A stretch of DNA of 64,000 nucleotides from Bacillota bacterium (GTDB taxonomy: Bacteria > Bacillota > UBA4882 > UBA8346): positions 3,096 to 67,095 of the forward strand of contig JAAYEK010000151.1 of assembly GCA_012728785.1 (NCBI GenBank), written 5' to 3'. The position numbers were made by a program, and so were the translations under genes. The notes beneath the pieces were generated by a model. That model searched no databases. It was not told the DNA's origin and saw only the letters and a program-made list of their open reading frames with translations. This document shows, one piece after another, positions 4,423-50,637 of the stretch (position 1 is the first letter of the stretch; each line of letters starts with the position of its first letter).

Positions 4423-5325
4423 CTAGCTATTCAATACCGTCGGTGGTATTAAAGCCTGAAAAGCCCCTTCCGGAGATAAGGAACGTTTACAAATACCGAC
4501 CACAACCTGATTATGGATGATGGCCCTCTTTTTTTGCCATACTTTCAATGAATCCGGCCGAAACCCAATTAAAATACCATGTTCTTTTCCGATACTTTTG
4601 AAAGGCAATACCCGGATTCTATCTTCCCAAACATTAGGCAGTTTCCAATCAAGATTTAACTCACCGGTCTGCATTTTTTCGATTAACTCAATTATTTCAA
4701 CAGGTAGCAACTTTTTGACTTGACCAAATTCAATTATTATAACCGGAACCTTAGTTAAAGGGTCATGCAACCGGTTTCCTGTATCTAATAAAGCGTTTAA
4801 ATTTAATTCGTTACCGTCCCAATTGATCTGAATCGGATAAAGACAAATTTGATCCCAAAATTTACGATGAACTACTCCCCAACCAAGTTCTCCTAAAACC
4901 AAGATTAGGGTTATATGACCCCAAAAACGCCACCAAAAATTAATCTGGCTTTGAAAATAGCGCCGATTAATACTGTCCAATCCCCAATGGATTCCGGATA
5001 ACAAAAAAGAAAGTAGATAAAAGTAACCAAATAGCTTAAGTGTTCTTTTAACATTAACCGTAAAGAAAGCTAAACCAATCATTATTACTGGAACTAATAA
5101 ACTAAATACGATTGGTGAAACAATCCAACGATGTACTACTCCTCCCGAAGCCTGATTTACTAAAATTAGAAATTGAAAGATCCCACCAATAGCTCCGCCC
5201 AAAATTATCCGGGGCCATTTAGTCTTAGCCACACCGATTTGCCCAACCATCCATAACAGCACCGCATCTTCAATCCAACCCAACAATCCGCCTAGGATGG
5301 GCACATCCAAGTATACCCTTAACAT
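4423..5325 (-). CDS. spoIIGA: Sigma-E processing peptidase SpoIIGA
   Basis: 300 aa with five N-terminal TM helices and a C-terminal aspartic protease motif ALLDTGNRLHDP. Lies immediately upstream of sigE. Confidence 0.85.
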   Translation of the reverse strand: MLRVYLDVPILGGLLGWIEDAVLLWMVGQIGVAKTKWPRIILGGAIGGIFQFLILVNQASGGVVHRWIVSPIVFSLLVPVIMIGLAFFTVNVKRTLKLFGYFYLLSFLLSGIHWGLDSINRRYFQSQINFWWRFWGHITLILVLGELGWGVVHRKFWDQICLYPIQINWDGNELNLNALLDTGNRLHDPLTKVPVIIIEFGQVKKLLPVEIIELIEKMQTGELNLDWKLPNVWEDRIRVLPFKSIGKEHGILIGFRPDSLKVWQKKRAIIHNQVVVGICKRSLSPEGAFQALIPPTVLNS

Positions 5326-5505
5326 TTGAACTCAACCCCTATATTGATTTTACAGTCATCAGGTTGATTTTCCTCTATAAATCGTTTCCTAAAATCACCG
5401 TAATTAGCTTCTTTTTCCTCTTTTTTAACGAAAAGCCGTAAAATGAGGAAAAGCGCCCAGAGCACGGGTCTGAACGCTTTTTGTATACTATTATTCTAGA
5501 TCTAC

Positions 5506-6549
5506 TTATTTTTTTCTCAAGAATGGAGGAATATCCAGTTCATCATTGACAAAAGGTCTAATTTCCAAGTCATCCAAACCCATCCGTTTGGACCGCTTTT
5601 GTTCAAAACCGGTGGCGATTACGGTAACCCTTATTTCTTCCCCTAAAGATTCATCAATTACAGCGCCGAATATAATATTGGCGTCAGGATCAACAGCATC
5701 GGTAATAATTGCCGCCGCTTCATTCACATCGGACAAGGTCAAATTACTGCTTCCAGTGATATTTAACAATACCCCTTTGGAACCTTCAATCGAGGTCTCA
5801 AGTAAAGCGCTGTTAATTGCGCTTTTCGCTGCCTGGACCGCCCGATCCTCTCCTTTAGCCAGACCAATTCCCATTAAAGCCGATCCGGCAGTGCTCATTA
5901 TGGTTTTTACGTCCGCGAAATCCACATTAATCAGTCCGGTGATGGTTATCAAGTCCGAGATACCTTGAACCCCTTGACGCAAAACATCGTCCGCCATTCG
6001 AAAAGCTTCAACAATGGAGGTGTTTTTATCGACAATTTGCAACAACCGTTCATTAGGAATAGTAATTAAGGTATCGACATTCTCTTTAAGAGTAGCGACG
6101 CCTTTTTCAGCTTGATTTTGACGAATCCGACCCTCAAATATAAATGGTTTCGTTACCACTCCAACTGTTAATGCTCCTAATTCCCGAGCCATTTGCGCAA
6201 TAACCGGCGCAGCGCCGGTCCCAGTGCCTCCACCCATACCGGCGGTTATAAATATCATGTCTGCGCCTTGTAAAACTCCGAGTATTTCATCTTTGCTTTC
6301 GAGAGCGGCTCTTTGTCCGATTTCAGGATTAGCACCAGCGCCTAATCCCTTAGTAAGCGCATCACCGATGCGTAATCGAATGTCGGCGTTAGATCGGTTT
6401 AGCGCCTGACCGTCAGTATTAATAGCTATAAACTCAACTCCTTGAATTTTAGCCTCAATCATCCTATTGACCGCATTGGTACCCCCGCCACCAACACCTA
6501 TTACTTTAAGAGATGCAAATTGGTGATTTGCAACATCAAATTCAAGCAT
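5506..6549 (-). CDS. ftsZ: Cell division GTPase FtsZ
   Basis: 347 aa. Tubulin signature [24 protein letters not shown], and a C-terminal DIPPFLRK tail. Confidence 0.97.
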
Positions 6550-23646: not shown

Positions 23647-24840
23647 TTATTGAAGTGTATTTGCTCTTTCGAGCGGGCTAATAATATCGGTAATCTTGAT
23701 GCCAAAGTTTTCATCAATAACCACTACTTCACCTTTGGCGATCATCTTGCCATTGACGTAGACATCCACTGGATCTCCCGCCAATTTATCCAGTTCTATG
23801 ATGGAACCGATGCCCAGGTCTAAAATATCTTTGATTTTCATTCTGGTTCCACCTAATTCCACAGTAACCTGTAACGGGACATCTAGAATTAATCCAATAT
23901 TGCCGGTCTCTTTACCGGTCTTGCCATTTCCAATAGGTCCGAATTGAGCGGGTTGTACCATCACCGGCGATCTAACCTCCGTTCTATTATAACTGTAATT
24001 AACTGGAGCCGGTGTAGGAGCCGTATTTACAGGTTGAGTATTGGTAACCGGTTCCATAACTGGCTGGCTCGGTTGTGGTGGAATTGGTTGTTGAAATTCG
24101 GGAGTTTCAACCGAATTCACCCGGGCTGGAACTTCTTCAACGACAGGCGCAACACTTTCTGTTACCAAAGTAGTAGCTACCTGTGTTTCCTCGATTAATT
24201 TATCAGCCAACTCAATCGCCAAATCATAAGAAATAACCAACATCAATTCGCTGTCAACCAAACCATCAATTTGCAACTTAAACGATACAACTACTATTTG
24301 ATTGTCTAAATCAACATCACGGATAATTGATTCGCTATCTGATGCTAAGTCTACCACTTTAATTCGGGGTGGATCCACATCAATACGTTGCCGAAATAAA
24401 GTGGATAGCGAAGTGGCGGCATTGCCGACCATTTGATTCATGGATTCTCCCACTGCGCTTAATTCGAGCTGTTCTAATGTTTGTTTTGGATTTGAGCCAT
24501 CTTTTCCCATCATTAGATCGGCGATGACTAACGCGTCACTTACTTTTAAAATCAGAACATTACTGCCTGTCAATCCCTTTTTATAATCCACTTCCACCAA
24601 AACATAGGGGACTGGATGCTGTTCCTTTAGTGCTTTTTGGGTCGATAATATTACTGTAGGAGTATCAATTATCACCCGTTTGTTCAATAACTCCGATAAC
24701 GCGGTCGACGCCGTCCCATAACTAATGTTACCGATCTCCCCCAGTGCATCAGTTTGCATTGGGGTTAGTTGTGAAGAATCACCCTCATCGCCTTTGAGTA
24801 GGGCATTGATTTCTTCCTGGGTAAGAATCTGTCGATCCAT
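23647..24840 (-). CDS. fliY: Flagellar switch protein FliY (CheC-like N-domain plus FliN C-domain)
   Basis: 397 aa. N-terminal [10 protein letters not shown] peptide, CheC-like [16 protein letters not shown], a Pro-rich linker, and a C-terminal FliN/SpoA domain. Confidence 0.85.
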
Positions 24841-28374: not shown

Positions 28375-30630
28375 TTACCGTTTCAAGTTAACCAGCTCTT
28401 GAAGCATCTCATCAGAGGTGGTAATCACCCGGGAGTTCGATTGGAACCCGCGTTCAGTCATGATCATGTCCGTAAACTCTTGAGAAAGATCCACATTGGA
28501 CATTTCGACCGTACCCGGAGTTATCTGGCCGCGGCTGCCCTGACCCGCCTGTCCAACCTGGGGTTGCCCCGAGTTGCTGGACTCCTCAAACATAGTATCG
28601 CCAACTCTGGATAAACCGCCCGGATTGGTAAAACTGGCCACCGCCAGCTGGGCCAAGTTCTGGTTCATTCCGTTGGAGAAGACTCCAACGATCCTGCCGG
28701 ACTTGTCAATGTTGAACCCTTGCAACATCCCCATAGGATAACCATCCTGGAAGGGGGATGTGAAATCGGAGATGGCCATATTATCACTGTCTAAAGTTCC
28801 GGCATATTGGCTCAGATCGCTAAAATCAGGATTAATCCTTACCGGTAAAGCTCCGGGCGGGGTGAAGGTAATTGGACCTCCGGTGTAAGATATTAATTCT
28901 CCTTCATTGCTAAAGTTAATCCGCCCGCTTCCAATAGGATTTTCATATTCATCTACTGTCGACCAGATCCAGTTATTATCATCCATCTTAGTTGCAGTAG
29001 TGAGTAAAAGATGATCGTTACCAAGCGAATCATAAACCCGAGTCATTGTGACTACCGGTTCGGGTACTCTTATTTGAACCTGACCATCCTGACCGCCAAC
29101 CATTAAACCTTCCTCAAAAGAAGGTGGGTTAACACCATTTTGCATTGCTCCAAAAGTTACTTCAACTCCATTTTCTAAGCGAATTCTGGTAGGATCGCCT
29201 GTAACACCTGCTGTAGGAGGGCCCCAAGTGAAAGTACCGCTACCTCCAGTAAGAACAGAACCATTTTCGGCATTTAATGTCCAGCTATAAACACCCGCAA
29301 CCGGCCCCGTTACATTGAATTGAAGATGCGAAAGAACTTCTCCAGCAGCATTATTCAGATTGTAAGTATAAGTTCCGGCGCCGGCAAATGCAGGCATATT
29401 AACTGTACCGGCAGCAATAACTTCCGGAGCGCGTTCGACCACCGTAAATGTTGGTATGCCACTCATTTCCGAAGGAGGGTTGATAGTAATATTCACTCCA
29501 CTAGGAGCTGTTGAGCGAACAAGAGTGGTAACATCACTGGCATTATAAATGCCTCTTGTGGAATCCCATTCAAAAGTCCCCATACCGCCTTGTTCGATAG
29601 TGACGTTTTCAGGACCGGGATCACTATCAGGAACAATTTGCCATTGAAAACGATTGGGAATGGAAGTGCCGGTAATCTGGTACGTCAAGTTAACCGTATT
29701 CCCGGCAGTATCAATTAAAGTAGCGTCATAGTTAAAGGGCACCGTACCGGTAAAACCAGTCAATACGTTACTCTGTAAAGCTCCGGTATAATGAGCTTCA
29801 AAACCGTCTCCCATAAGTTGTCCAACCTGGGGACTCATGATCCTAACCGGAGTTCCATCAGTAGGAGTGACCTCAAACCAAGTACCAGGCGAGGCAACAA
29901 CTACTCCATTTTCATTCAACCGAATTGTACCGTGATATCCGGAGCCGCCTGTAATAGTGCCACCTTGCACAACCGCTTCATACTCATATTCATTAAATCC
30001 TACCGGCCTAAGAGTATATGTAATGGTAGCGCTATGATCGTTGCTGGCATCCGATACGGATTGGGTCATATAACGCAAATTGACATTGGTATTGGCAGCC
30101 AAATTCCCGCCAAACTCAATCTGGGAAGTAGCAATTGGAGCGATGGTTTGGCCTACCGGAATTCGAATATTGGTTACCGGCATATTGGTATTGATCACTC
30201 CAGTGATATTAGCCATCCAGCCCCGGACGATCAACCCATTGGAAGGATTAACCAACCGTCCGTCCCGTTCCATATTGAAATTCCCGGCTCGGGTATAATA
30301 CTCCCGTTGCCCGTCGCTCAAGATGAAAAATCCATCTCCTTGAATGGCAACATCGGTGATTTTTCCGGTATTTTGCAAGTTGCCCTGGGTATGCAACACA
30401 TCGATACTGGCCAGGTTCATACCTAAACCGACTTGCAAGGCGTTGATACCGCCCCGGTTGGCGTTAGGCGCGGAAGCGCCGCGCAGGGTTTGATTTAAAG
30501 TATCTTGAAAACTTACTCGACCGGCTTTATAGCCGACCGTATTAACGTTGGCGATATTATTGCCGATGGCATCCATCCGGATCTGGTGGTTCCTAAGACC
30601 CGTTACGCCGGCGAACATTGATCGCATCAT
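28375..30630 (-). CDS. flgE: Flagellar hook protein FlgE with a very large central insertion
   Basis: 751 aa. Conserved N-terminus (MMRSMFAGVTGLRNHQIRMDAIGNNIANVNTVGYK) and C-terminus (SNVDLSQEFTDMIMTERGFQSNSRVITTSDEMLQELVNLKR). Confidence 0.9.
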   Translation of the reverse strand: MMRSMFAGVTGLRNHQIRMDAIGNNIANVNTVGYKAGRVSFQDTLNQTLRGASAPNANRGGINALQVGLGMNLASIDVLHTQGNLQNTGKITDVAIQGDGFFILSDGQREYYTRAGNFNMERDGRLVNPSNGLIVRGWMANITGVINTNMPVTNIRIPVGQTIAPIATSQIEFGGNLAANTNVNLRYMTQSVSDASNDHSATITYTLRPVGFNEYEYEAVVQGGTITGGSGYHGTIRLNENGVVVASPGTWFEVTPTDGTPVRIMSPQVGQLMGDGFEAHYTGALQSNVLTGFTGTVPFNYDATLIDTAGNTVNLTYQITGTSIPNRFQWQIVPDSDPGPENVTIEQGGMGTFEWDSTRGIYNASDVTTLVRSTAPSGVNITINPPSEMSGIPTFTVVERAPEVIAAGTVNMPAFAGAGTYTYNLNNAAGEVLSHLQFNVTGPVAGVYSWTLNAENGSVLTGGSGTFTWGPPTAGVTGDPTRIRLENGVEVTFGAMQNGVNPPSFEEGLMVGGQDGQVQIRVPEPVVTMTRVYDSLGNDHLLLTTATKMDDNNWIWSTVDEYENPIGSGRINFSNEGELISYTGGPITFTPPGALPVRINPDFSDLSQYAGTLDSDNMAISDFTSPFQDGYPMGMLQGFNIDKSGRIVGVFSNGMNQNLAQLAVASFTNPGGLSRVGDTMFEESSNSGQPQVGQAGQGSRGQITPGTVEMSNVDLSQEFTDMIMTERGFQSNSRVITTSDEMLQELVNLKR

Positions 30631-43213: not shown

Positions 43214-44467
43214 ATGACTATTAATTATGGCAAATTACTAGCAAGCCAGAGAAACTGGTTTTCCACAGGGAAATCCGGAGAAATTGGTTTTCGGATCAAA
43301 GCCCTAAAAATATTGAAACAAACTATTATTAAACGCACTGACGAAATCATGGCCGCTCTGGAGAAAGATTTCGGCAAGAGCCGGTTTGAGACCTTCACCA
43401 GTGAAATTATGGCGGCTATCGAAGAGATCAACCTAGCGGTTAAAAATTTGCATTCATGGGCTGCTCCGCTAAGAGTAAAAACTCCCATTACATACTTTAA
43501 AGCGAAAAGCCGGATTTATTATGAGCCTTTTGGAGTCGTTCTGGTAATATCGGCCTGGAATTACCCCTTTCAACTAACAATAACTCCTTTAATCGGCGCA
43601 ATCTCAGCCGGTAATTGCTGTGTGGTAAAGCCTTCGGAGTTGTCGCCCAACACCTCGAAAATTGTAACCTCGATAATTAGGGATTCTTTCCCGGAGGAAT
43701 ATTGCGCAGCGGTTGAAGGTGGAATCGAGGAAACGACAGCTTTGCTCAAAGAAAAATTTGACTTTATTCATTATACAGGAAGCACCCGCGTGGGGAGGAT
43801 AATCGCCCAGGCGGCCGCTGAACATTTAACCCCGGCCGTACTGGAGATGGGCGGAAAAAGTCCTTGTATCGTCGATGATACCGCTGATCTAAAAATTTCT
43901 GCCCGCAGAATAGCCTGGGGCAAATTCTTAAACGCCGGTCAAACTTGTGTAGCTCCTGATTATCTGATAGTACATAAAGCGATTAAAGCACCATTGTTGC
44001 AAGCTCTTCAAGAACAAATTAAAGCTTTCTACGGAGATGCTCCGGAAAAAAACAGCGATTACTGCCGGGTCATTAGTCAAAGACATTTTGACCGGCTGTC
44101 AACCTTCTTGAAAAACGGCGCTATTGTCAGTGGCGGAACTACGGACCGGGATCAGTTATACATTGAGCCGACTTTGCTTGATAAGATATCATGGGATGAT
44201 CCTATAATGCAGGAAGAGATATTCGGCCCGATACTTCCGGTTTTGGAATATGAGGATTTGTCCGAGGTGATCGCAACGATCAATGGCCATAGCAAGCCTC
44301 TAGCCCTTTATTTCTTCTCCAAGGACAAGCAAGCCCAAAAAAGAATCCTTAGGGAGGTTCCTTTCGGCGGCGGCTGTATCAATACGACTCTAATGCACAC
44401 CGCCAACCCGCATTTACCCTTTGGAGGAGTCGGCGAAAGTGGCATCGGTAGTTATCATGGAAGGTAG
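43214..44467 (+). CDS. ALDH3-type aldehyde dehydrogenase, interrupted by an in-frame TAG (conserved C-terminus continues to 44587)
   Basis: 417 aa with catalytic LEMGGKSP and GQTCVAPDY. It ends ...GIGSYHGR-TAG and the same frame continues SFETFSHKKSVLDKS...YPPYQNKVNFLKKLYK-TAA, which is the normal family C-terminus. Confidence 0.85.
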   Translation: MTINYGKLLASQRNWFSTGKSGEIGFRIKALKILKQTIIKRTDEIMAALEKDFGKSRFETFTSEIMAAIEEINLAVKNLHSWAAPLRVKTPITYFKAKSRIYYEPFGVVLVISAWNYPFQLTITPLIGAISAGNCCVVKPSELSPNTSKIVTSIIRDSFPEEYCAAVEGGIEETTALLKEKFDFIHYTGSTRVGRIIAQAAAEHLTPAVLEMGGKSPCIVDDTADLKISARRIAWGKFLNAGQTCVAPDYLIVHKAIKAPLLQALQEQIKAFYGDAPEKNSDYCRVISQRHFDRLSTFLKNGAIVSGGTTDRDQLYIEPTLLDKISWDDPIMQEEIFGPILPVLEYEDLSEVIATINGHSKPLALYFFSKDKQAQKRILREVPFGGGCINTTLMHTANPHLPFGGVGESGIGSYHGR

Positions 44468-44719
44468 AGCTTTGAAACTTTTTCTCATAAAAAAAGCGTC
44501 TTAGACAAATCGACACTAATTGATCCCCTCTTGCCTTATCCGCCTTACCAAAACAAGGTTAACTTTTTAAAGAAATTATATAAATAACTAGCGAAGTTAA
44601 TGTAGATTTCAATTTGGTCCCATTTGCCTTTGGCTTTAACCACGATGCTTAAATATTAACCGCGGACAGACACGAAATAGCTCTAATAAATTCTTCAAAT
44701 CTCAAGGTTTTATTCGGGT

Positions 44720-45437: not shown

Positions 45438-45608
45438 TTACGATAGCCATATCTTGCAAATATAGTATTGCTTATTAGAGCCAATTGGTTTACATGCCGC
45501 CAATAGTGTATCTGGTAATGTTTCATCTAAAATTCCATTATTTTTCGGCAAATAATAGTGCAGCACCAGCATCAGCGCTACTATAATTAAACACATTATT
45601 TTTTGCAT
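45438..45608 (-). CDS. Possible small membrane peptide (56 aa) at the edge of the AT-rich island
   Basis: ATG preceded by AGAGGGTG. Product MQKIMCLIIVALMLVLHYY... has one TM helix and a Cys-containing tail. Weak evidence. Confidence 0.3.
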   Translation of the reverse strand: MQKIMCLIIVALMLVLHYYLPKNNGILDETLPDTLLAACKPIGSNKQYYICKIWLS

Positions 45609-45636: not shown

Positions 45637-46470
45637 TCAAGCGCTAAAACTTGGACAAGAATCCAGCAAAGGATAATTAAATATTTCAAATTTCACTTGA
45701 CCATCTTTAGTCAAAATACCGCTGAATACCATTTTTTCTTCATACTTTGAATTGTTATTGAGAAAATCCGTCCATTCTTTTCTACGGAGCATTCTTTTTT
45801 CCAAGTGAACGGTAATTTTATTTCCTTCTACTTGATAAGTGCCTTTATAAATTAACTTGGGAATATTGGTATCATGGTTTATAAAAAATTTATTATCATA
45901 AAACCAAAATTCTACTTGTTTATTTTTAGAAAATTTCGCGCCACCTACAAAGTTATAGATCCCTTCTCCAACGATATACCATTCTAACCCAGTCAAAATT
46001 TCTTCAACATCAACTGTTTTGGTAGGAGAAAGACCAATAAGGATTAAATAACGGAAATCCTTTCGGATTATATCTAAATCCGGATCAGTTTTAATTTTTA
46101 GAATGTAAGCCGGATTTAGTTTCTTTACTATTTGTAAATGCTCGAAAATCTCTTCGTAATGATCATATCCAAACTCTTCATCGCTTTTTGCCAATACTCC
46201 TATGGTGCAAGCATAGTTATAATGCGCTAAATAGTATGTGTTATCACTTGTGAATGATTTCTTAAACAAATCCAAAGCTTCTTCATATTTACCCTCTTTA
46301 TACAGTTTAAAACCCTTATTATTTAGATCAATAGCTGCTTCTCGATGACTAGTCGGCGAGTTAGTTTTTATCGAATCTGCTTGAGAAATAAAGGGTTGAT
46401 TTATAATAAGGCATAAAGCAAAACAAAATATAGTTAGTATCATAATCTTTAATTGTAAATAACGGATCAT
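45637..46470 (-). CDS. Secreted TPR-containing protein, unknown function (candidate immunity protein)
   Basis: The ATG at 46470 is preceded by GAGGTGA. It has a signal peptide (MILTIFCFALCLII...ISQA) and a TPR-like segment AIDLNNKGFKLYKEGKYEEALDLFKKSF. Confidence 0.6.
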   Translation of the reverse strand: MIRYLQLKIMILTIFCFALCLIINQPFISQADSIKTNSPTSHREAAIDLNNKGFKLYKEGKYEEALDLFKKSFTSDNTYYLAHYNYACTIGVLAKSDEEFGYDHYEEIFEHLQIVKKLNPAYILKIKTDPDLDIIRKDFRYLILIGLSPTKTVDVEEILTGLEWYIVGEGIYNFVGGAKFSKNKQVEFWFYDNKFFINHDTNIPKLIYKGTYQVEGNKITVHLEKRMLRRKEWTDFLNNNSKYEEKMVFSGILTKDGQVKFEIFNYPLLDSCPSFSA

Positions 46471-46514: not shown

Positions 46515-47261
46515 TCAATGCTTCATTGCTGTTTTTACATCATTTTTAAACTTCTCCCAATTCGAATTATTTTCTCCATAAAATAATTTTGGACAATCTT
46601 TCTTAGCAAAATCATAATGTCGCAACAAACCATTTTGAACATCTAATTGATATTGTTTAAGCCTATCAGCAACTAAACGAACAAGGGTTGTATATGTTTT
46701 TGTACTAAAATTTCCTTCTGCATCTATTGGTTCAACTTCAATAGAAATAGCCCAATCATTATGATTGCGTTCCTCTTTCCCATTTCTAGTTATGAAGAAA
46801 CGTTTTTTACAAAGTTCGGTAATATTCTCAGGATGTTTTTTATCCCACCCATTAGCAAATGCTGTCTCTTCTTCAGGAACTATCAATAAAGCTTCTCCAT
46901 CAACACCAATAATATAATTGGAACTCACATCCTTATTCGTAATAAACCAATTTCGTGTTGCTTCTACTTTTTGATTAGGCGCAGCAGTCCAATGCACAAC
47001 AATAGCTTTTATTCCACCCGTTCTACGAGCACGCCTATTCCATGCCTCTCCATTCTTATATAATAAATTAGTAGTAATAGAATAATACATTTGTTCTTTA
47101 TTATAATAATTAATAGGTGGTATTGATTCTTGAGATTCTTTCTTCTTTTCCGGTGTTGTTTTTACCGGAAACGCTATCGCCTCATCCGATTCCAAGCATT
47201 GATTATGCTTCTCAATACTTATTACCCCACCCTTAACGCATTTCATTTTAGAATTATGCAT
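46515..47261 (-). CDS. Amidase_2 (PGRP/T7-lysozyme type) N-acetylmuramoyl-L-alanine amidase, likely the C-terminal part of a split DUF4280 fusion
   Basis: Contains IKAIVVHWTAAPN, SSNYIIGVDGE, WAISIEVEP and LLRHYDFAKKDCPKLF (Zn ligand and K-x-CP context). There is no close Shine-Dalgarno before its ATG, and the frame is open upstream to the TAA at 47316-47318. Confidence 0.8.
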   Translation of the reverse strand: MHNSKMKCVKGGVISIEKHNQCLESDEAIAFPVKTTPEKKKESQESIPPINYYNKEQMYYSITTNLLYKNGEAWNRRARRTGGIKAIVVHWTAAPNQKVEATRNWFITNKDVSSNYIIGVDGEALLIVPEEETAFANGWDKKHPENITELCKKRFFITRNGKEERNHNDWAISIEVEPIDAEGNFSTKTYTTLVRLVADRLKQYQLDVQNGLLRHYDFAKKDCPKLFYGENNSNWEKFKNDVKTAMKH

Positions 47262-47315
47262 GAGGGCCGATGCGCCTTCAATAATTACATCGTTTTTCCA
47301 ACTCTTCCACGGACC

Positions 47316-47516
47316 TTATAGCGACAGCCTGCATTGGTGATATTTCGGTATGCTGCAAAAATTAAATTTGTGAATACTTTTAGTAGTATAGTCATTAACA
47401 TTCGCTTGAGGCTTGCCTTGGATAAAAGTATTCCGCCCCGGAGTGACTTTTAGTTTACACGTCCCGCCTTTACTACATTTCAGAGTTGCTCCATCTACAA
47501 CATAACTGGTAGCCAT
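47316..47516 (-). CDS. DUF4280 (PAAR-like) domain, N-terminal part, ended by an in-frame TAA
   Basis: The ATG at 47516 is preceded by GGAGGTG. MATSYVVDGATLKCSKGGTCKLKVTPGRNTFIQGKPQANVNDY...FCS matches the DUF4280 N-half. The C-half motif PW...V.I.G..AL...S...C..GG.I.I follows after the stop. Confidence 0.7.
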   Translation of the reverse strand: MATSYVVDGATLKCSKGGTCKLKVTPGRNTFIQGKPQANVNDYTTKSIHKFNFCSIPKYHQCRLSL

Positions 47517-47543
47517 TGTAAACACCTCCTCGGATATTCATAC

Positions 47544-48581
47544 TTAAAGCTTTATTTTCTCAATAACGCTATCATGACTTAAATATAATAAATCTCCGAT
47601 TACCTTCTTACTAAAATACCGGCAAGTATAGCGCTTATTTAATAAGCTTTTACCTTCAAAGGAATAAATTTTGACATTGGTTTTGCTTTGATTATTATTA
47701 TCCATTGAGGTTTCCGTACAGATAAACTTATTTAATAAATATTCAATATGAAAACCGCTTAAATTAAGAAAGTTCTTCTTCTGTTCAATGACTTTTAAAC
47801 TTTTCATTGATAATAATTGTATAGTTTTTTCTTCAACGAAGAGTAGTGTATTATCTCTTTTAAACAGCCCTAATATGCCACCATCCGTTAAGAATGTTAA
47901 ATTAATTTGTTCAAAATTTGAATTATATTTTTTTAGTTGTGGTTTAGTTTTAAAATTAAGATGAATTGCGTAAATATTACCTTCTTGATCAATTACAGAA
48001 TTAACTATGTAGTCGTTATTTTTCTTTTGAAGCAGCTTACCATCTTTGATAAAATAGGATTTTTTATCTTCAGTATTAAATAGAACGTTCTTATAATCTT
48101 CAGAAATAGAATAATCGTTAATTCCTGTTTCAAAAACGTATTTCCAAATATCAACACCTTTTTCAGGATCGATTTTTCTTATCTCTCCACAATCATTGGT
48201 TACCGGCCCGGCTTCATTAATTAGTAATAATATCTCATTTTTTATTTTTATCAAATAATTTCCTTTAATCTCCCACAATTTATTTAAATCCAAATTAAGC
48301 CCAACTATATATCCCTCTGTTTCTAAAATAATAGTATTTTTACAAGTCTCTATAGCGAATGGTTGGTCTTTTATTGGAATAGATTTTATTAGTTTTAATC
48401 CATTATCATACTTGTTTAAAAAATACTTCTCGCTTGATTCTTGATGAATTACATACCAAGTACTATTATTGATCTCAAAATCAACTATGTTATTTGAAAA
48501 TTTTATTTCTTTACCTTGTGTGTTTTGCTGATTCAAGATAATTAAGAATACAAAAAATAAACTGATGAAAAATTTTTTCAT
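47544..48581 (-). CDS. Secreted beta-rich protein, unknown function (candidate immunity or adaptor)
   Basis: The ATG at 48581 gives a classic signal peptide MKKFFISLFFVFLIILNQQ. About 345 aa, Asn/Lys/Ile-rich, no family recognised. The longer ORF to 48647 overlaps the upstream gene. Confidence 0.6.
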   Translation of the reverse strand: MKKFFISLFFVFLIILNQQNTQGKEIKFSNNIVDFEINNSTWYVIHQESSEKYFLNKYDNGLKLIKSIPIKDQPFAIETCKNTIILETEGYIVGLNLDLNKLWEIKGNYLIKIKNEILLLINEAGPVTNDCGEIRKIDPEKGVDIWKYVFETGINDYSISEDYKNVLFNTEDKKSYFIKDGKLLQKKNNDYIVNSVIDQEGNIYAIHLNFKTKPQLKKYNSNFEQINLTFLTDGGILGLFKRDNTLLFVEEKTIQLLSMKSLKVIEQKKNFLNLSGFHIEYLLNKFICTETSMDNNNQSKTNVKIYSFEGKSLLNKRYTCRYFSKKVIGDLLYLSHDSVIEKIKL

Positions 48582-48612
48582 CTTTATCTCAACCCTTTCA
48601 GATTTTTTAACA

Positions 48613-50637
48613 CTATAGTAAAGGCTTCGTAATAAATTCAATTTCACCAGAATTTATAAGTTTTTCCGGATTGATATGTTTACCATCCTTCCTTGCAGTG
48701 ATATGAACATGAATTCCCATATTTTCAATTCCTTTAGCTGTGTTTCCCATTTTCCCTATTGCTTCTCCCTTTTTAACATTTACGCCTTTTTTAACGTAAA
48801 TCGTATCTACGTGACAATAACTAATTACTATTTCATCTACGTAACTAACTTGCACATACTTTCCTGATTTGTCTGTTACATTATCATGTACTGTTATTAC
48901 TATTCCTTCTCCAATCGATACTATATCTGGTTTTGTACCAGCTGGTATTGGCGCATAATCCGTTCCAGTATGCCATGTACTAGCACCTTCCGGAGCATCA
49001 GTTCTATAACCAACTCTAGAAGATACCCTATTTTGTCCCTTCACAGGATTAATCCAAGTATCAGCTTCTCCTTCTTTCTTTTTTACATTTTTTTCAGAAT
49101 TAATTCGGTTAGCATCTTTCCCTTGTTCCTTCCTTACCTTCGACCCGAAAATATGAATCATCCCGCTTTTTTCATTCTCATTCAACACCACCTTACTTTG
49201 GCCGCATTTAATATCAACCGCCTTTTTGGCGCTGATCGATACTTTCCTGCCTGCTTGCAAGTTCAGGTTGCCCTTGGACCGGATCTCCAGTTCATTATGG
49301 CTGGAGATGGTAACTCCCTTATCTTGGTCAAGCCGGATCTGCAAATTGGCTTCCTTTCCAGAGAGAGTTATCCCGGTTTGGTTCAATGCCAGTTCTTTCC
49401 GATGGTTGGTCCGGAACATTTTGGTATAAAGATGATCAACTAATCGTTCTCGATCTCTTTCAAGCCGCGTCGAACTGACAACAACCGCTTTATCCTCATT
49501 AGTTGAGGAGAATCGTATTTTTACATAATCTCCGAGTTCCGGCAGGCAATAAAACCCGGTGTGATTCTCAGCGCTATAATAGGTAGCATAAGGAAGCCAG
49601 GCCGCTTCTTCGGGAGGGGTGGGGTCATCAAAGTTGATTCTTACTTTGACCTTATCCTTGAGAGGATCATCATCCGGGCCGCCTACGTCAATCACATGTC
49701 CGTCCAAGGTTACTCCCGGCAGCTGCCGGTTATACCGGGGTTTCTGACGTAGTCCCCCATAAGGAGTTACTATTGTTTCAAAGTACAGTTCGCTGCCACG
49801 GATATAGGCAGTGGAAAGATAAACATAAAGGGCCGGCTGGATTCCCGGAAGGGTGACGGTATCGCCGATATCTAAGAATTGATTGGTCCGTAGTTTGTAA
49901 TAGACGTATTCTTCCGGGATACTGGTTTGATCATAATTCGCTTTCACAATCTGATGTTTGTTGATTCTTTTGATAATCCATAAAATAAGTGGCTCATTAA
50001 TTGAATATTCCTTCCCCTCAGGCAAACCTACACACAAGGAAGGTTTGCCGGCAATCGGGTCCGGGACCAGTCCGGTCTGAAATCGGGAAGCCAATCGCTT
50101 TAGGAACTGCCAGTCAGTCTCTTGGTACTGTAAGGTGAATTGGCCCAGCTTCTTTGATTCTTTGCTGTTTTTCTCCATCAGTTCTTTACCGGCAGAAATA
50201 ACCGCCGGCCAACTACCTGCCGCAATTTTATCAAGGGCCTTTTGGTAAGGCATCTCCTTATTTTGAAAAGAACGCCGCCGTCGTACCATGTTCAGCCAAT
50301 AGGTTTCCGAAGACCCGTTCAGCTTCATATAATAGTAGTTTTCGCCGGGAACAAACCAAAGCTTGATACGGGTGGCTACTCCGGCAAAGATTAAGGCCGG
50401 GTCGGAATTCTCCCCGGTATAGGTGACTTTGATCCGAGTCTCCCGGCTAGCCCGGTATAGGAAAGTTTCTCTTTCGGAAACTTCCACTCGCCTTCCGGAA
50501 AAAAAGAGCTTGACGTGATCATTAAGCTTCTTGGTGATTCGAAGATGCTTAACGGAATTCGGGTTGATCTTTTCTTCCGTCCCATCCTCCCAAATTAGGG
50601 TGATGGCAATTTTTTGAGCAACTCCCAACGTTACCAC
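48613..50637 (-). CDS. VgrG/gp5-like spike protein (late-control-D plus OB-fold) fused to a C-terminal M23/LytM peptidase
   Basis: 674 aa. OB-fold stretch GHVIDVGGPDDDPLKDKVKVRINFDD...WLPYATYY...GFYCLPELGDYVKIRF, then short beta-repeat strands, a Lys-rich linker, and M23 motifs WHTGTDYA (HxxxD) and GIHVHI (HxH). The start may be the TTG at 50628. Confidence 0.75.
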   Translation of the reverse strand: MVTLGVAQKIAITLIWEDGTEEKINPNSVKHLRITKKLNDHVKLFFSGRRVEVSERETFLYRASRETRIKVTYTGENSDPALIFAGVATRIKLWFVPGENYYYMKLNGSSETYWLNMVRRRRSFQNKEMPYQKALDKIAAGSWPAVISAGKELMEKNSKESKKLGQFTLQYQETDWQFLKRLASRFQTGLVPDPIAGKPSLCVGLPEGKEYSINEPLILWIIKRINKHQIVKANYDQTSIPEEYVYYKLRTNQFLDIGDTVTLPGIQPALYVYLSTAYIRGSELYFETIVTPYGGLRQKPRYNRQLPGVTLDGHVIDVGGPDDDPLKDKVKVRINFDDPTPPEEAAWLPYATYYSAENHTGFYCLPELGDYVKIRFSSTNEDKAVVVSSTRLERDRERLVDHLYTKMFRTNHRKELALNQTGITLSGKEANLQIRLDQDKGVTISSHNELEIRSKGNLNLQAGRKVSISAKKAVDIKCGQSKVVLNENEKSGMIHIFGSKVRKEQGKDANRINSEKNVKKKEGEADTWINPVKGQNRVSSRVGYRTDAPEGASTWHTGTDYAPIPAGTKPDIVSIGEGIVITVHDNVTDKSGKYVQVSYVDEIVISYCHVDTIYVKKGVNVKKGEAIGKMGNTAKGIENMGIHVHITARKDGKHINPEKLINSGEIEFITKPLL

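Follow-up and report, generated by a model that had tools for sequence, protein, structure and literature searches.

A TAA nonsense codon divides a putative DUF4280-amidase effector gene within its PAAR-like domain in a Bacillota lineage

DUF4280 is a PAAR-like domain defined by four conserved metal-binding cysteines, each of which is required for secretion of Francisella IglG (PMC5014421), and among PAAR-like tips with toxin domains the PAAR_H type is exemplified by IglG and by Flavobacterium Fte1. In Firmicutes, vgrG genes of the Phage_GPD type have been described beside PAAR_H2 (DUF4280) genes with no genes for a type VI secretion system (T6SS) or an extracellular contractile injection system (eCIS) nearby (Zhang et al. 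2021, PMC8651086; Lays et al. 2016, PMC5349215). Among vgrG-linked auxiliary clusters in Ralstonia, 23.5% carry loss-of-function mutations, including premature stops (PMC11481896). Here we analyse a gene related to these systems on a 64,000-nucleotide stretch of DNA from a Bacillota bacterium (the window; assembly GCA_012728785.1, contig JAAYEK010000151.1, positions 3,096 to 67,095), in which a DUF4280 domain is followed in the same frame by an Amidase_2 (N-acetylmuramoyl-L-alanine amidase) domain and is interrupted by an in-frame TAA at codon 67. We posit that this is most probably a case of ordinary effector pseudogenisation by a single C>T nonsense mutation, with retention of the immunity gene.

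The locus resembles PAAR_H-type toxins in its full-length match to the domain, its four cysteines with IglG-like spacing, the presence of a vgrG one gene upstream, the C-terminal enzymatic extension and the immunity-like gene that follows, and differs from them in that the domain is cut by a stop and in that the cargo is Amidase_2, the amidase cited for PAAR toxins being of the Tae4 type. With the Firmicute vgrG and PAAR_H2 modules it shares a Firmicute host, weak Phage_GPD and DUF2345 signals and an absence of firing genes among the window annotations. As in decayed T6SS vgrG-toxin-immunity clusters and orphan immunity genes, the toxin is stopped prematurely beside an immunity gene that is intact and constrained; those clusters are known from Proteobacteria and Bacteroidales with a defined T6SS, whereas the present case appears to be a single, very recent event in one lineage.

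The minus-strand frame runs from its ATG through 66 codons to the TAA, continues open for 18 codons to an ATG at 47261, the 19th codon past the stop, and proceeds through 247 more codons to a TGA (Table 1). With the TAA masked, the conceptual readthrough product of 333 aa comprises a complete DUF4280 (PF14107; profile positions 1-109 of 109, E 1.4e-19, 71.1 bits against a Pfam cut-off of 26.3), a linker and Amidase_2 (PF01510; E 2e-16, 60.9 bits, cut-off 26). The original prediction, that one TAA splits DUF4280 mid-domain with the frame then open into the amidase open reading frame (ORF), agrees with these matches: the 66-aa piece covers only the first part of the profile and the post-stop peptide alone only positions 72-109 (E 1.8e-8), and with the profile thus divided between the two real ORFs, the stop is located within DUF4280 and not between domains. 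More specifically, it falls between the third and fourth of the conserved cysteines C14, C54, C62 and C93, which are invariant or nearly so in the family alignment, and because the TAA parts C93 from the other three, no translated product holds all four. There is no in-frame ATG, GTG or TTG between the TAA and the ATG at 47261 (Met-86), so the intervening codons remain untranslated unless the stop is read through. The amidase ATG also lacks a close Shine-Dalgarno sequence, as had been proposed, in contrast to the AGGAGG that precedes the DUF4280 ATG: the nearest candidate read from the sequence is GAAGG, which at 13 nt upstream is too far away to be usable. GenBank already lists two coding sequences (CDS) at this position, one for a DUF4280 domain-containing protein of 66 aa (NLW47811.1) and one for an N-acetylmuramoyl-L-alanine amidase of 248 aa (NLW47810.1). 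That the frame remains open past the stop is more than chance, because it is homologous over its entire length to intact fusions.

The TAA is a real allele and not a sequencing error, as it recurs in a separate ENA assembly (ERZ795066; contig L001), which has one mismatch to the window in 12,747 bases, and independently in a Logan contig (SRR36104162; L002) with two mismatches in 6,178 bases. The latter derives from a different run and departs from the window at these two sites away from the stop, one of them eight codons before the TAA (CAT against TAT in the window at codon 59), and is therefore neither the same assembly nor the same clone. The 66-aa ORF was called on three contigs and the exact 248-aa ORF on several. 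All known carriers of the TAA belong to one near-clonal lineage (≥99.97% identical), so that the known spread of the allele is narrow.

Outside this lineage intact forms of the gene exist. A protein search recovered fusions 84-89% identical to the conceptual product, namely P0001 (333 aa, 89%), P0002 (335 aa, 84%) and P0030 (333 aa, from a biogas-fermenter metagenome), with Gln, Arg and Gln, respectively, at residue 67. Aligning the orthologous loci to find the codon that the stop replaced, as originally suggested, gave a sense codon in all eight relatives: CAA in six (L003, L005, L006, L007, L009 and L013) and CGT in two (L004 and L008). TAA is one C>T transition from CAA. No relative outside the near-clonal lineage shows a split into two ORFs at this stop, a pattern that would have spoken for two ancestrally separate genes. 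Given the intact fusions and the sense codons at the stop site, the ancestral gene can be reconstructed as a PAAR-like-amidase fusion of about 334 aa, in line with the original prediction. In several other proteins the same N-terminal DUF4280 precedes different C-terminal domains, among them an M23 peptidase and an Amidase_2 distinct from the present one. A first metagenome scan with full-length alignment returned no matches, and a scan of a genome collection returned one short contig only, L005. The deposit of this metagenome-assembled genome (MAG) also lists an intact 308-aa DUF4280-amidase paralogue, NLW47566.1 (P0032), whose sequence matches the effector of L006 (1-9242), which has two vgrG genes upstream of it and the gene for a DUF2259 secreted protein downstream. 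A truncation has arisen independently in the same family in L009, where homology ends after codon 71 within a 98-aa ORF (L009 835-1131).

Comparison of the window with L003 gave a synonymous divergence (dS) of 0.16 and a ratio of non-synonymous to synonymous divergence (dN/dS) of 0.13 for codons 1-64, 0.80 and 0.12 for codons 65-116, and 0.18 and 0.27 for codons 166-333, which encode the amidase. Synonymous and non-synonymous substitutions specific to the window number 7 and 8 in the C-terminal half of DUF4280, as against 15 and 8 in the other three full-length genes pooled, and 4 and 3 in the amidase as against 33 and 15. There is a non-significant hint of relaxation, which includes G73W, K88N and G112E, changes at otherwise invariant or nearly invariant residues. 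Because the downstream frame lacks detectable decay, the nonsense mutation is probably recent. Several points nevertheless weigh against pseudogenisation: the 266 codons past the stop contain no further stop or frameshift; relaxed selection past the stop gave no significant signal, in a test of low power; the absence of detectable decay also fits continued selection on the downstream part; and the delivery machine for Firmicute VgrG/DUF4280 modules is reported to be unknown (PMC8651086).

Alternative explanations of the stop differ in what they predict for its context and its distribution. An error of sequencing or assembly, with CAA as the true codon and the gene intact, is scarcely credible: a single-base difference is the commonest type of error and the name of the ERZ795066 contig points to a coverage of only about 5x, but the same TAA stands in the window, L001 and L002. 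Leaky or programmed readthrough, whereby a near-cognate tRNA (such as Gln, Lys or Tyr) would decode UAA on a small share of ribosomes and a low level of fusion protein would perhaps be selected, accounts for the fully open downstream frame without significant relaxation of constraint and for the kept immunity gene; moreover, since one spike carries one tip protein of the PAAR type, a low level would be useful. We nonetheless regard it as very unlikely: both release factors recognise UAA, which leaks least among bacterial stops, and most often it is TAA that genuinely terminates genes in the window (31 of 63, against 20 for TGA and 12 for TAG), with at least 11 genes other than this one ending in the identical tetranucleotide TAA-G. 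Furthermore, RNA structure in the 146 nt around and after the stop is no better than in shuffled sequence (z +0.41), the allele occurs in one near-clonal lineage only with a sense codon in every other relative, and that lineage carries the three substitutions at conserved residues just past the stop. Thus neither a leaky context, nor a stimulatory structure, nor conservation of the stop in relatives, by which programmed readthrough would be recognised, was found. The related notion of a stop-codon throttle, in which rare decoding of UAA arms an occasional spike, the bulk of the product consists of harmless fragments and the TAA is kept because it is useful, is more doubtful still; if true, the stop would restrain a cell-wall toxin dangerous to its own producer, within a contractile system of a Gram-positive bacterium. 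No more probable than the throttle is a functional two-piece arrangement, in which the 66-aa half and the C-half-amidase reassemble as a cone, or the 248-aa amidase serves as a housekeeping cell-wall enzyme. While GenBank annotates two CDS and the alignable catalytic residues of the amidase are intact, the first available start, Met-86, drops residues 68-85 including the invariant G68-P69-W70, the distant GAAGG is the only Shine-Dalgarno-like site, the 248-aa product has no signal peptide and so could not reach peptidoglycan, and the split is seen in no relative. Consensus promoter and terminator sites between the two halves equal those of shuffled sequence in number, and no tRNA genes were found in the window. 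An alternative genetic code or general stop suppression was rejected, as TAA, TGA and TAG end genes normally and other same-frame adjacent ORF pairs are separate genes. Of the three origins initially considered for the stop, a recent nonsense mutation fits all of the evidence, sequencing error is contradicted by the two further data sets and readthrough has no positive support.

A further alternative concerns where the TAA came from, and is compatible with pseudogenisation: the stop may have arrived by gene conversion, as part of a segment of about 200 bp whose source was a diverged and silent copy, for example an orphan toxin cassette that is not translated. Two codons before the TAA is the 5' edge of a tract in which dS is about five times that of the flanks (window against L003; Fisher p 8e-5 to 3e-4) and sliding identity is 76-87%, compared with mostly 87-100% outside, the lowest flank values occurring in the linker just downstream. 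Synonymous divergence so far above both flanks is evidence that the gene is a recombination mosaic. In addition, L005 is identical to the window from the Shine-Dalgarno sequence through codon 64, except at polymorphic codon 59, and then switches to the L003 type, and several paralogues have near-identical 5' ends, the MAG deposit listing a second one. However, none of the collections searched yielded a donor of this tract, the tract dN/dS of 0.12 indicates translated rather than silent sequence, this half of the domain has a high dS between other members too (e.g. 0.56 for L013 against L003), and an in-place CAA>TAA transition explains the stop equally well; import is therefore unlikely. Breakpoints in the middle of DUF4280 (codons about 59-72) were seen in three independent cases, at codon 65 in the window, after codon 64 in L005 (2311-2680), which ends in a different C-terminal domain, and after codon 71 in L009. 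This pattern suggests that cargoes are exchanged by recombination within the PAAR-like domain and not past its end, and mid-DUF4280 looks like a recurrent recombination junction of this polymorphic-toxin family. L005 is a 2.8-kb contig (JAEZLC010000100.1) in a MAG labelled 'Cyanobacteria bacterium OH_CDB_58', and may be either mis-binned or the result of a very recent horizontal exchange of the 5' module.

Table 1. Coordinates of the split gene, its component parts and its neighbours in the window.
Feature	Position	Strand	Evidence or remarks
VgrG-like spike protein with C-terminal M23 peptidase; first gene of the island	48613..50637	-	Phage_base_V 2.6e-7, Peptidase_M23 2.7e-16 (Pfam)
345-aa protein (367 aa from an upstream GTG, 47544-48647) with signal-peptide-like N-terminus	47544..48581	-	ORF list; 345-aa call in L001
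AGGAGG Shine-Dalgarno sequence	47525..47530	-	8-nt spacer to the DUF4280 ATG (47516-47514); read directly
N-terminal fragment ORF, 66 aa plus TAA	47316..47516	-	DUF4280 profile positions 1-57; Cys14, Cys54, Cys62; deposited as NLW47811.1
Full DUF4280 (PAAR-like) domain of the conceptual product, residues 6-106	47199..47501	-	Pfam; broken by the stop
Tract of raised divergence, about codons 65-116	47124..47327	-	5' edge two codons before the TAA
In-frame TAA, codon 67	47316..47318	-	CAA (Gln) or CGT (Arg) in relatives
18 in-frame codons between the TAA and the first ATG, GPWKSWKNDVIIEGASAL	47262..47315	-	Encode the invariant GPW motif
248-aa ORF	46515..47261	-	Last DUF4280 strands with Cys93, linker of ~60 aa, Amidase_2; deposited as NLW47810.1
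Amidase_2 (N-acetylmuramoyl-L-alanine amidase) domain, residues 169-309	46590..47012	-	Pfam
277-aa candidate immunity protein, intact, with signal-peptide-like N-terminus and weak TPR signal	45637..46470	-	ORF list, Pfam
Terminator-like hairpin and T-run after the immunity gene	45560..45581	-	Consensus scan only; site count no greater than in shuffled sequence

The assignment of the cargo as an amidase is also consistent with structural comparison. An AlphaFold2 model was obtained for the homologue P0001 (89% identical) from an alignment of 10 sequences, and its amidase part, with a predicted local distance difference test score (pLDDT) of about 60-90, matched XlyA, PlyL, PlyG and T7 lysozyme in Foldseek (E 1e-6 to 1e-5). 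Residues 1-164 of the model, which include the PAAR-like domain, have a pLDDT below 50, given the shallow alignment. Searches of PDB sequences with the domain profile and with the amidase ORF gave no hits. In BLASTP against a manually entered T7 lysozyme sequence, H300, K306 and C308 pair with the lysozyme residues H122, K128 and C130, and a candidate for the first zinc-ligand histidine, H175 (VVHWTA), was matched by eye only. The amidase has the fold of phage and prophage Amidase_2 endolysins (PlyL, XlyA, PlyG and T7 lysozyme) and appears to share their zinc-amidase motif positions; it differs from them in being attached to a spike-tip domain where they have a cell-wall-binding domain, and its partner gene is immunity-like, whereas theirs encodes a holin.

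Taken together with family knowledge, these features suggest how the gene would have worked and how it may have been lost. The locus can be viewed as a small spike-cargo island comprising VgrG-M23, a secreted protein, the DUF4280-Amidase_2 effector and a secreted immunity candidate. In the intact relatives the effector would be a single protein, in which a metal-held, four-cysteine DUF4280 cone caps the tip of the VgrG trimer and a linker of about 60 residues carries the amidase, a C-terminal zinc enzyme predicted to cut MurNAc-L-Ala bonds of the target cell wall, while the downstream secreted protein would protect the producer. In the present lineage the C>T change turning Gln-67 (CAA) into TAA would end translation after 66 residues, which include three of the four cysteines and should be unable to form the metal site. 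Amidase would be made only by inefficient re-initiation at Met-86, and, lacking GPW and a complete cone, could not be mounted on the spike. The effector would in this way be lost as a delivered toxin, whereas the immunity gene stays.

The island consists of five minus-strand ORFs flanked by mnmA and a HAD hydrolase gene, and terminator-like hairpins lie at either end. The genomic association of DUF4280 with vgrG is present both in the window, where VgrG-M23 is encoded one gene upstream, and in L006, with two vgrG genes upstream; in the window VgrG the Phage_GPD and DUF2345 matches are below their Pfam cut-offs. The effector and the 277-aa gene are syntenic in L003 and L004, where they lie behind unrelated upstream genes, and because the pair travels together in this manner it appears to behave as a toxin-immunity cassette. 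The 277-aa gene has a dN/dS of 0.16-0.19, and the hairpin behind it is the probable end of the operon. No significant Pfam family was found for the 345-aa protein, and L003, L004 and L005 carry unrelated genes at its position; it may serve the VgrG M23 domain in an immunity or accessory role. Each of the two spike proteins bears a peptidoglycan hydrolase, M23 in the case of VgrG and Amidase_2 in that of the tip, and downstream of each lies a gene whose product has a signal-peptide-like N-terminus.

The window is otherwise chromosomal, with nifS/nifU, a flagellar and chemotaxis operon of the Bacillus/Clostridium type including FliY (23647-24840), and ftsZ followed by spoIIGA (4423-6549). The FliY flagellar operon and ftsZ-spoIIGA identify the host, as judged from gene content, as a spore-forming Firmicute. 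The FlgE hook protein of this operon (28375-30630, minus strand) is unusually long, with 751 aa and an inserted D2-type domain, although the operon is otherwise of the Bacillus/Clostridium type. The annotated genes of the 64-kb window included none for a sheath, tube or baseplate and none for Tss proteins, the T6SS core components TssB/C, Hcp, TssJLM and ClpV being likewise absent from them, and the locus is not filed as a T6SS.

A second in-frame stop in the window, a TAG at 44465-44467 on the plus strand, interrupts an aldehyde dehydrogenase gene (43214-44590), which reads SYHGR*SFETFSHKKSVL and stays open for 39 more codons. L001 has the same TAG and a 417-aa call, whereas L002 has TGG (Trp) and a 457-aa call, which marks W418* as a derived nonsense mutation in the strain represented by the window and L001. 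The three lineage-level changes seen near the locus are all C>T on the minus strand, namely H59Y (CAT>TAT) at 47342, Q67* (CAA>TAA) at 47318 and W418* (TGG>TAG on the plus strand) at 44466. Two of the three single-base differences between the window and L001 or L002 change a protein, one of these being nonsense. A deamination bias, or drift within a clonal population of small size, might explain these changes.

The split gene does not represent a new recoding mechanism, and its most probable explanation, inactivation by a nonsense mutation, follows a route of decay that has been widely recorded in T6SS auxiliary clusters. Since NLW47811.1 and NLW47810.1 each represent one half of a single disrupted gene, their annotation should be changed to that of a pseudogene. 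The stop is less noteworthy than its setting, in that a VgrG-M23 and PAAR-like-amidase module is found in what appears to be a spore-forming Firmicute with no known firing machinery nearby, and belongs to a family that seems to reshuffle by recombination within the PAAR-like domain.

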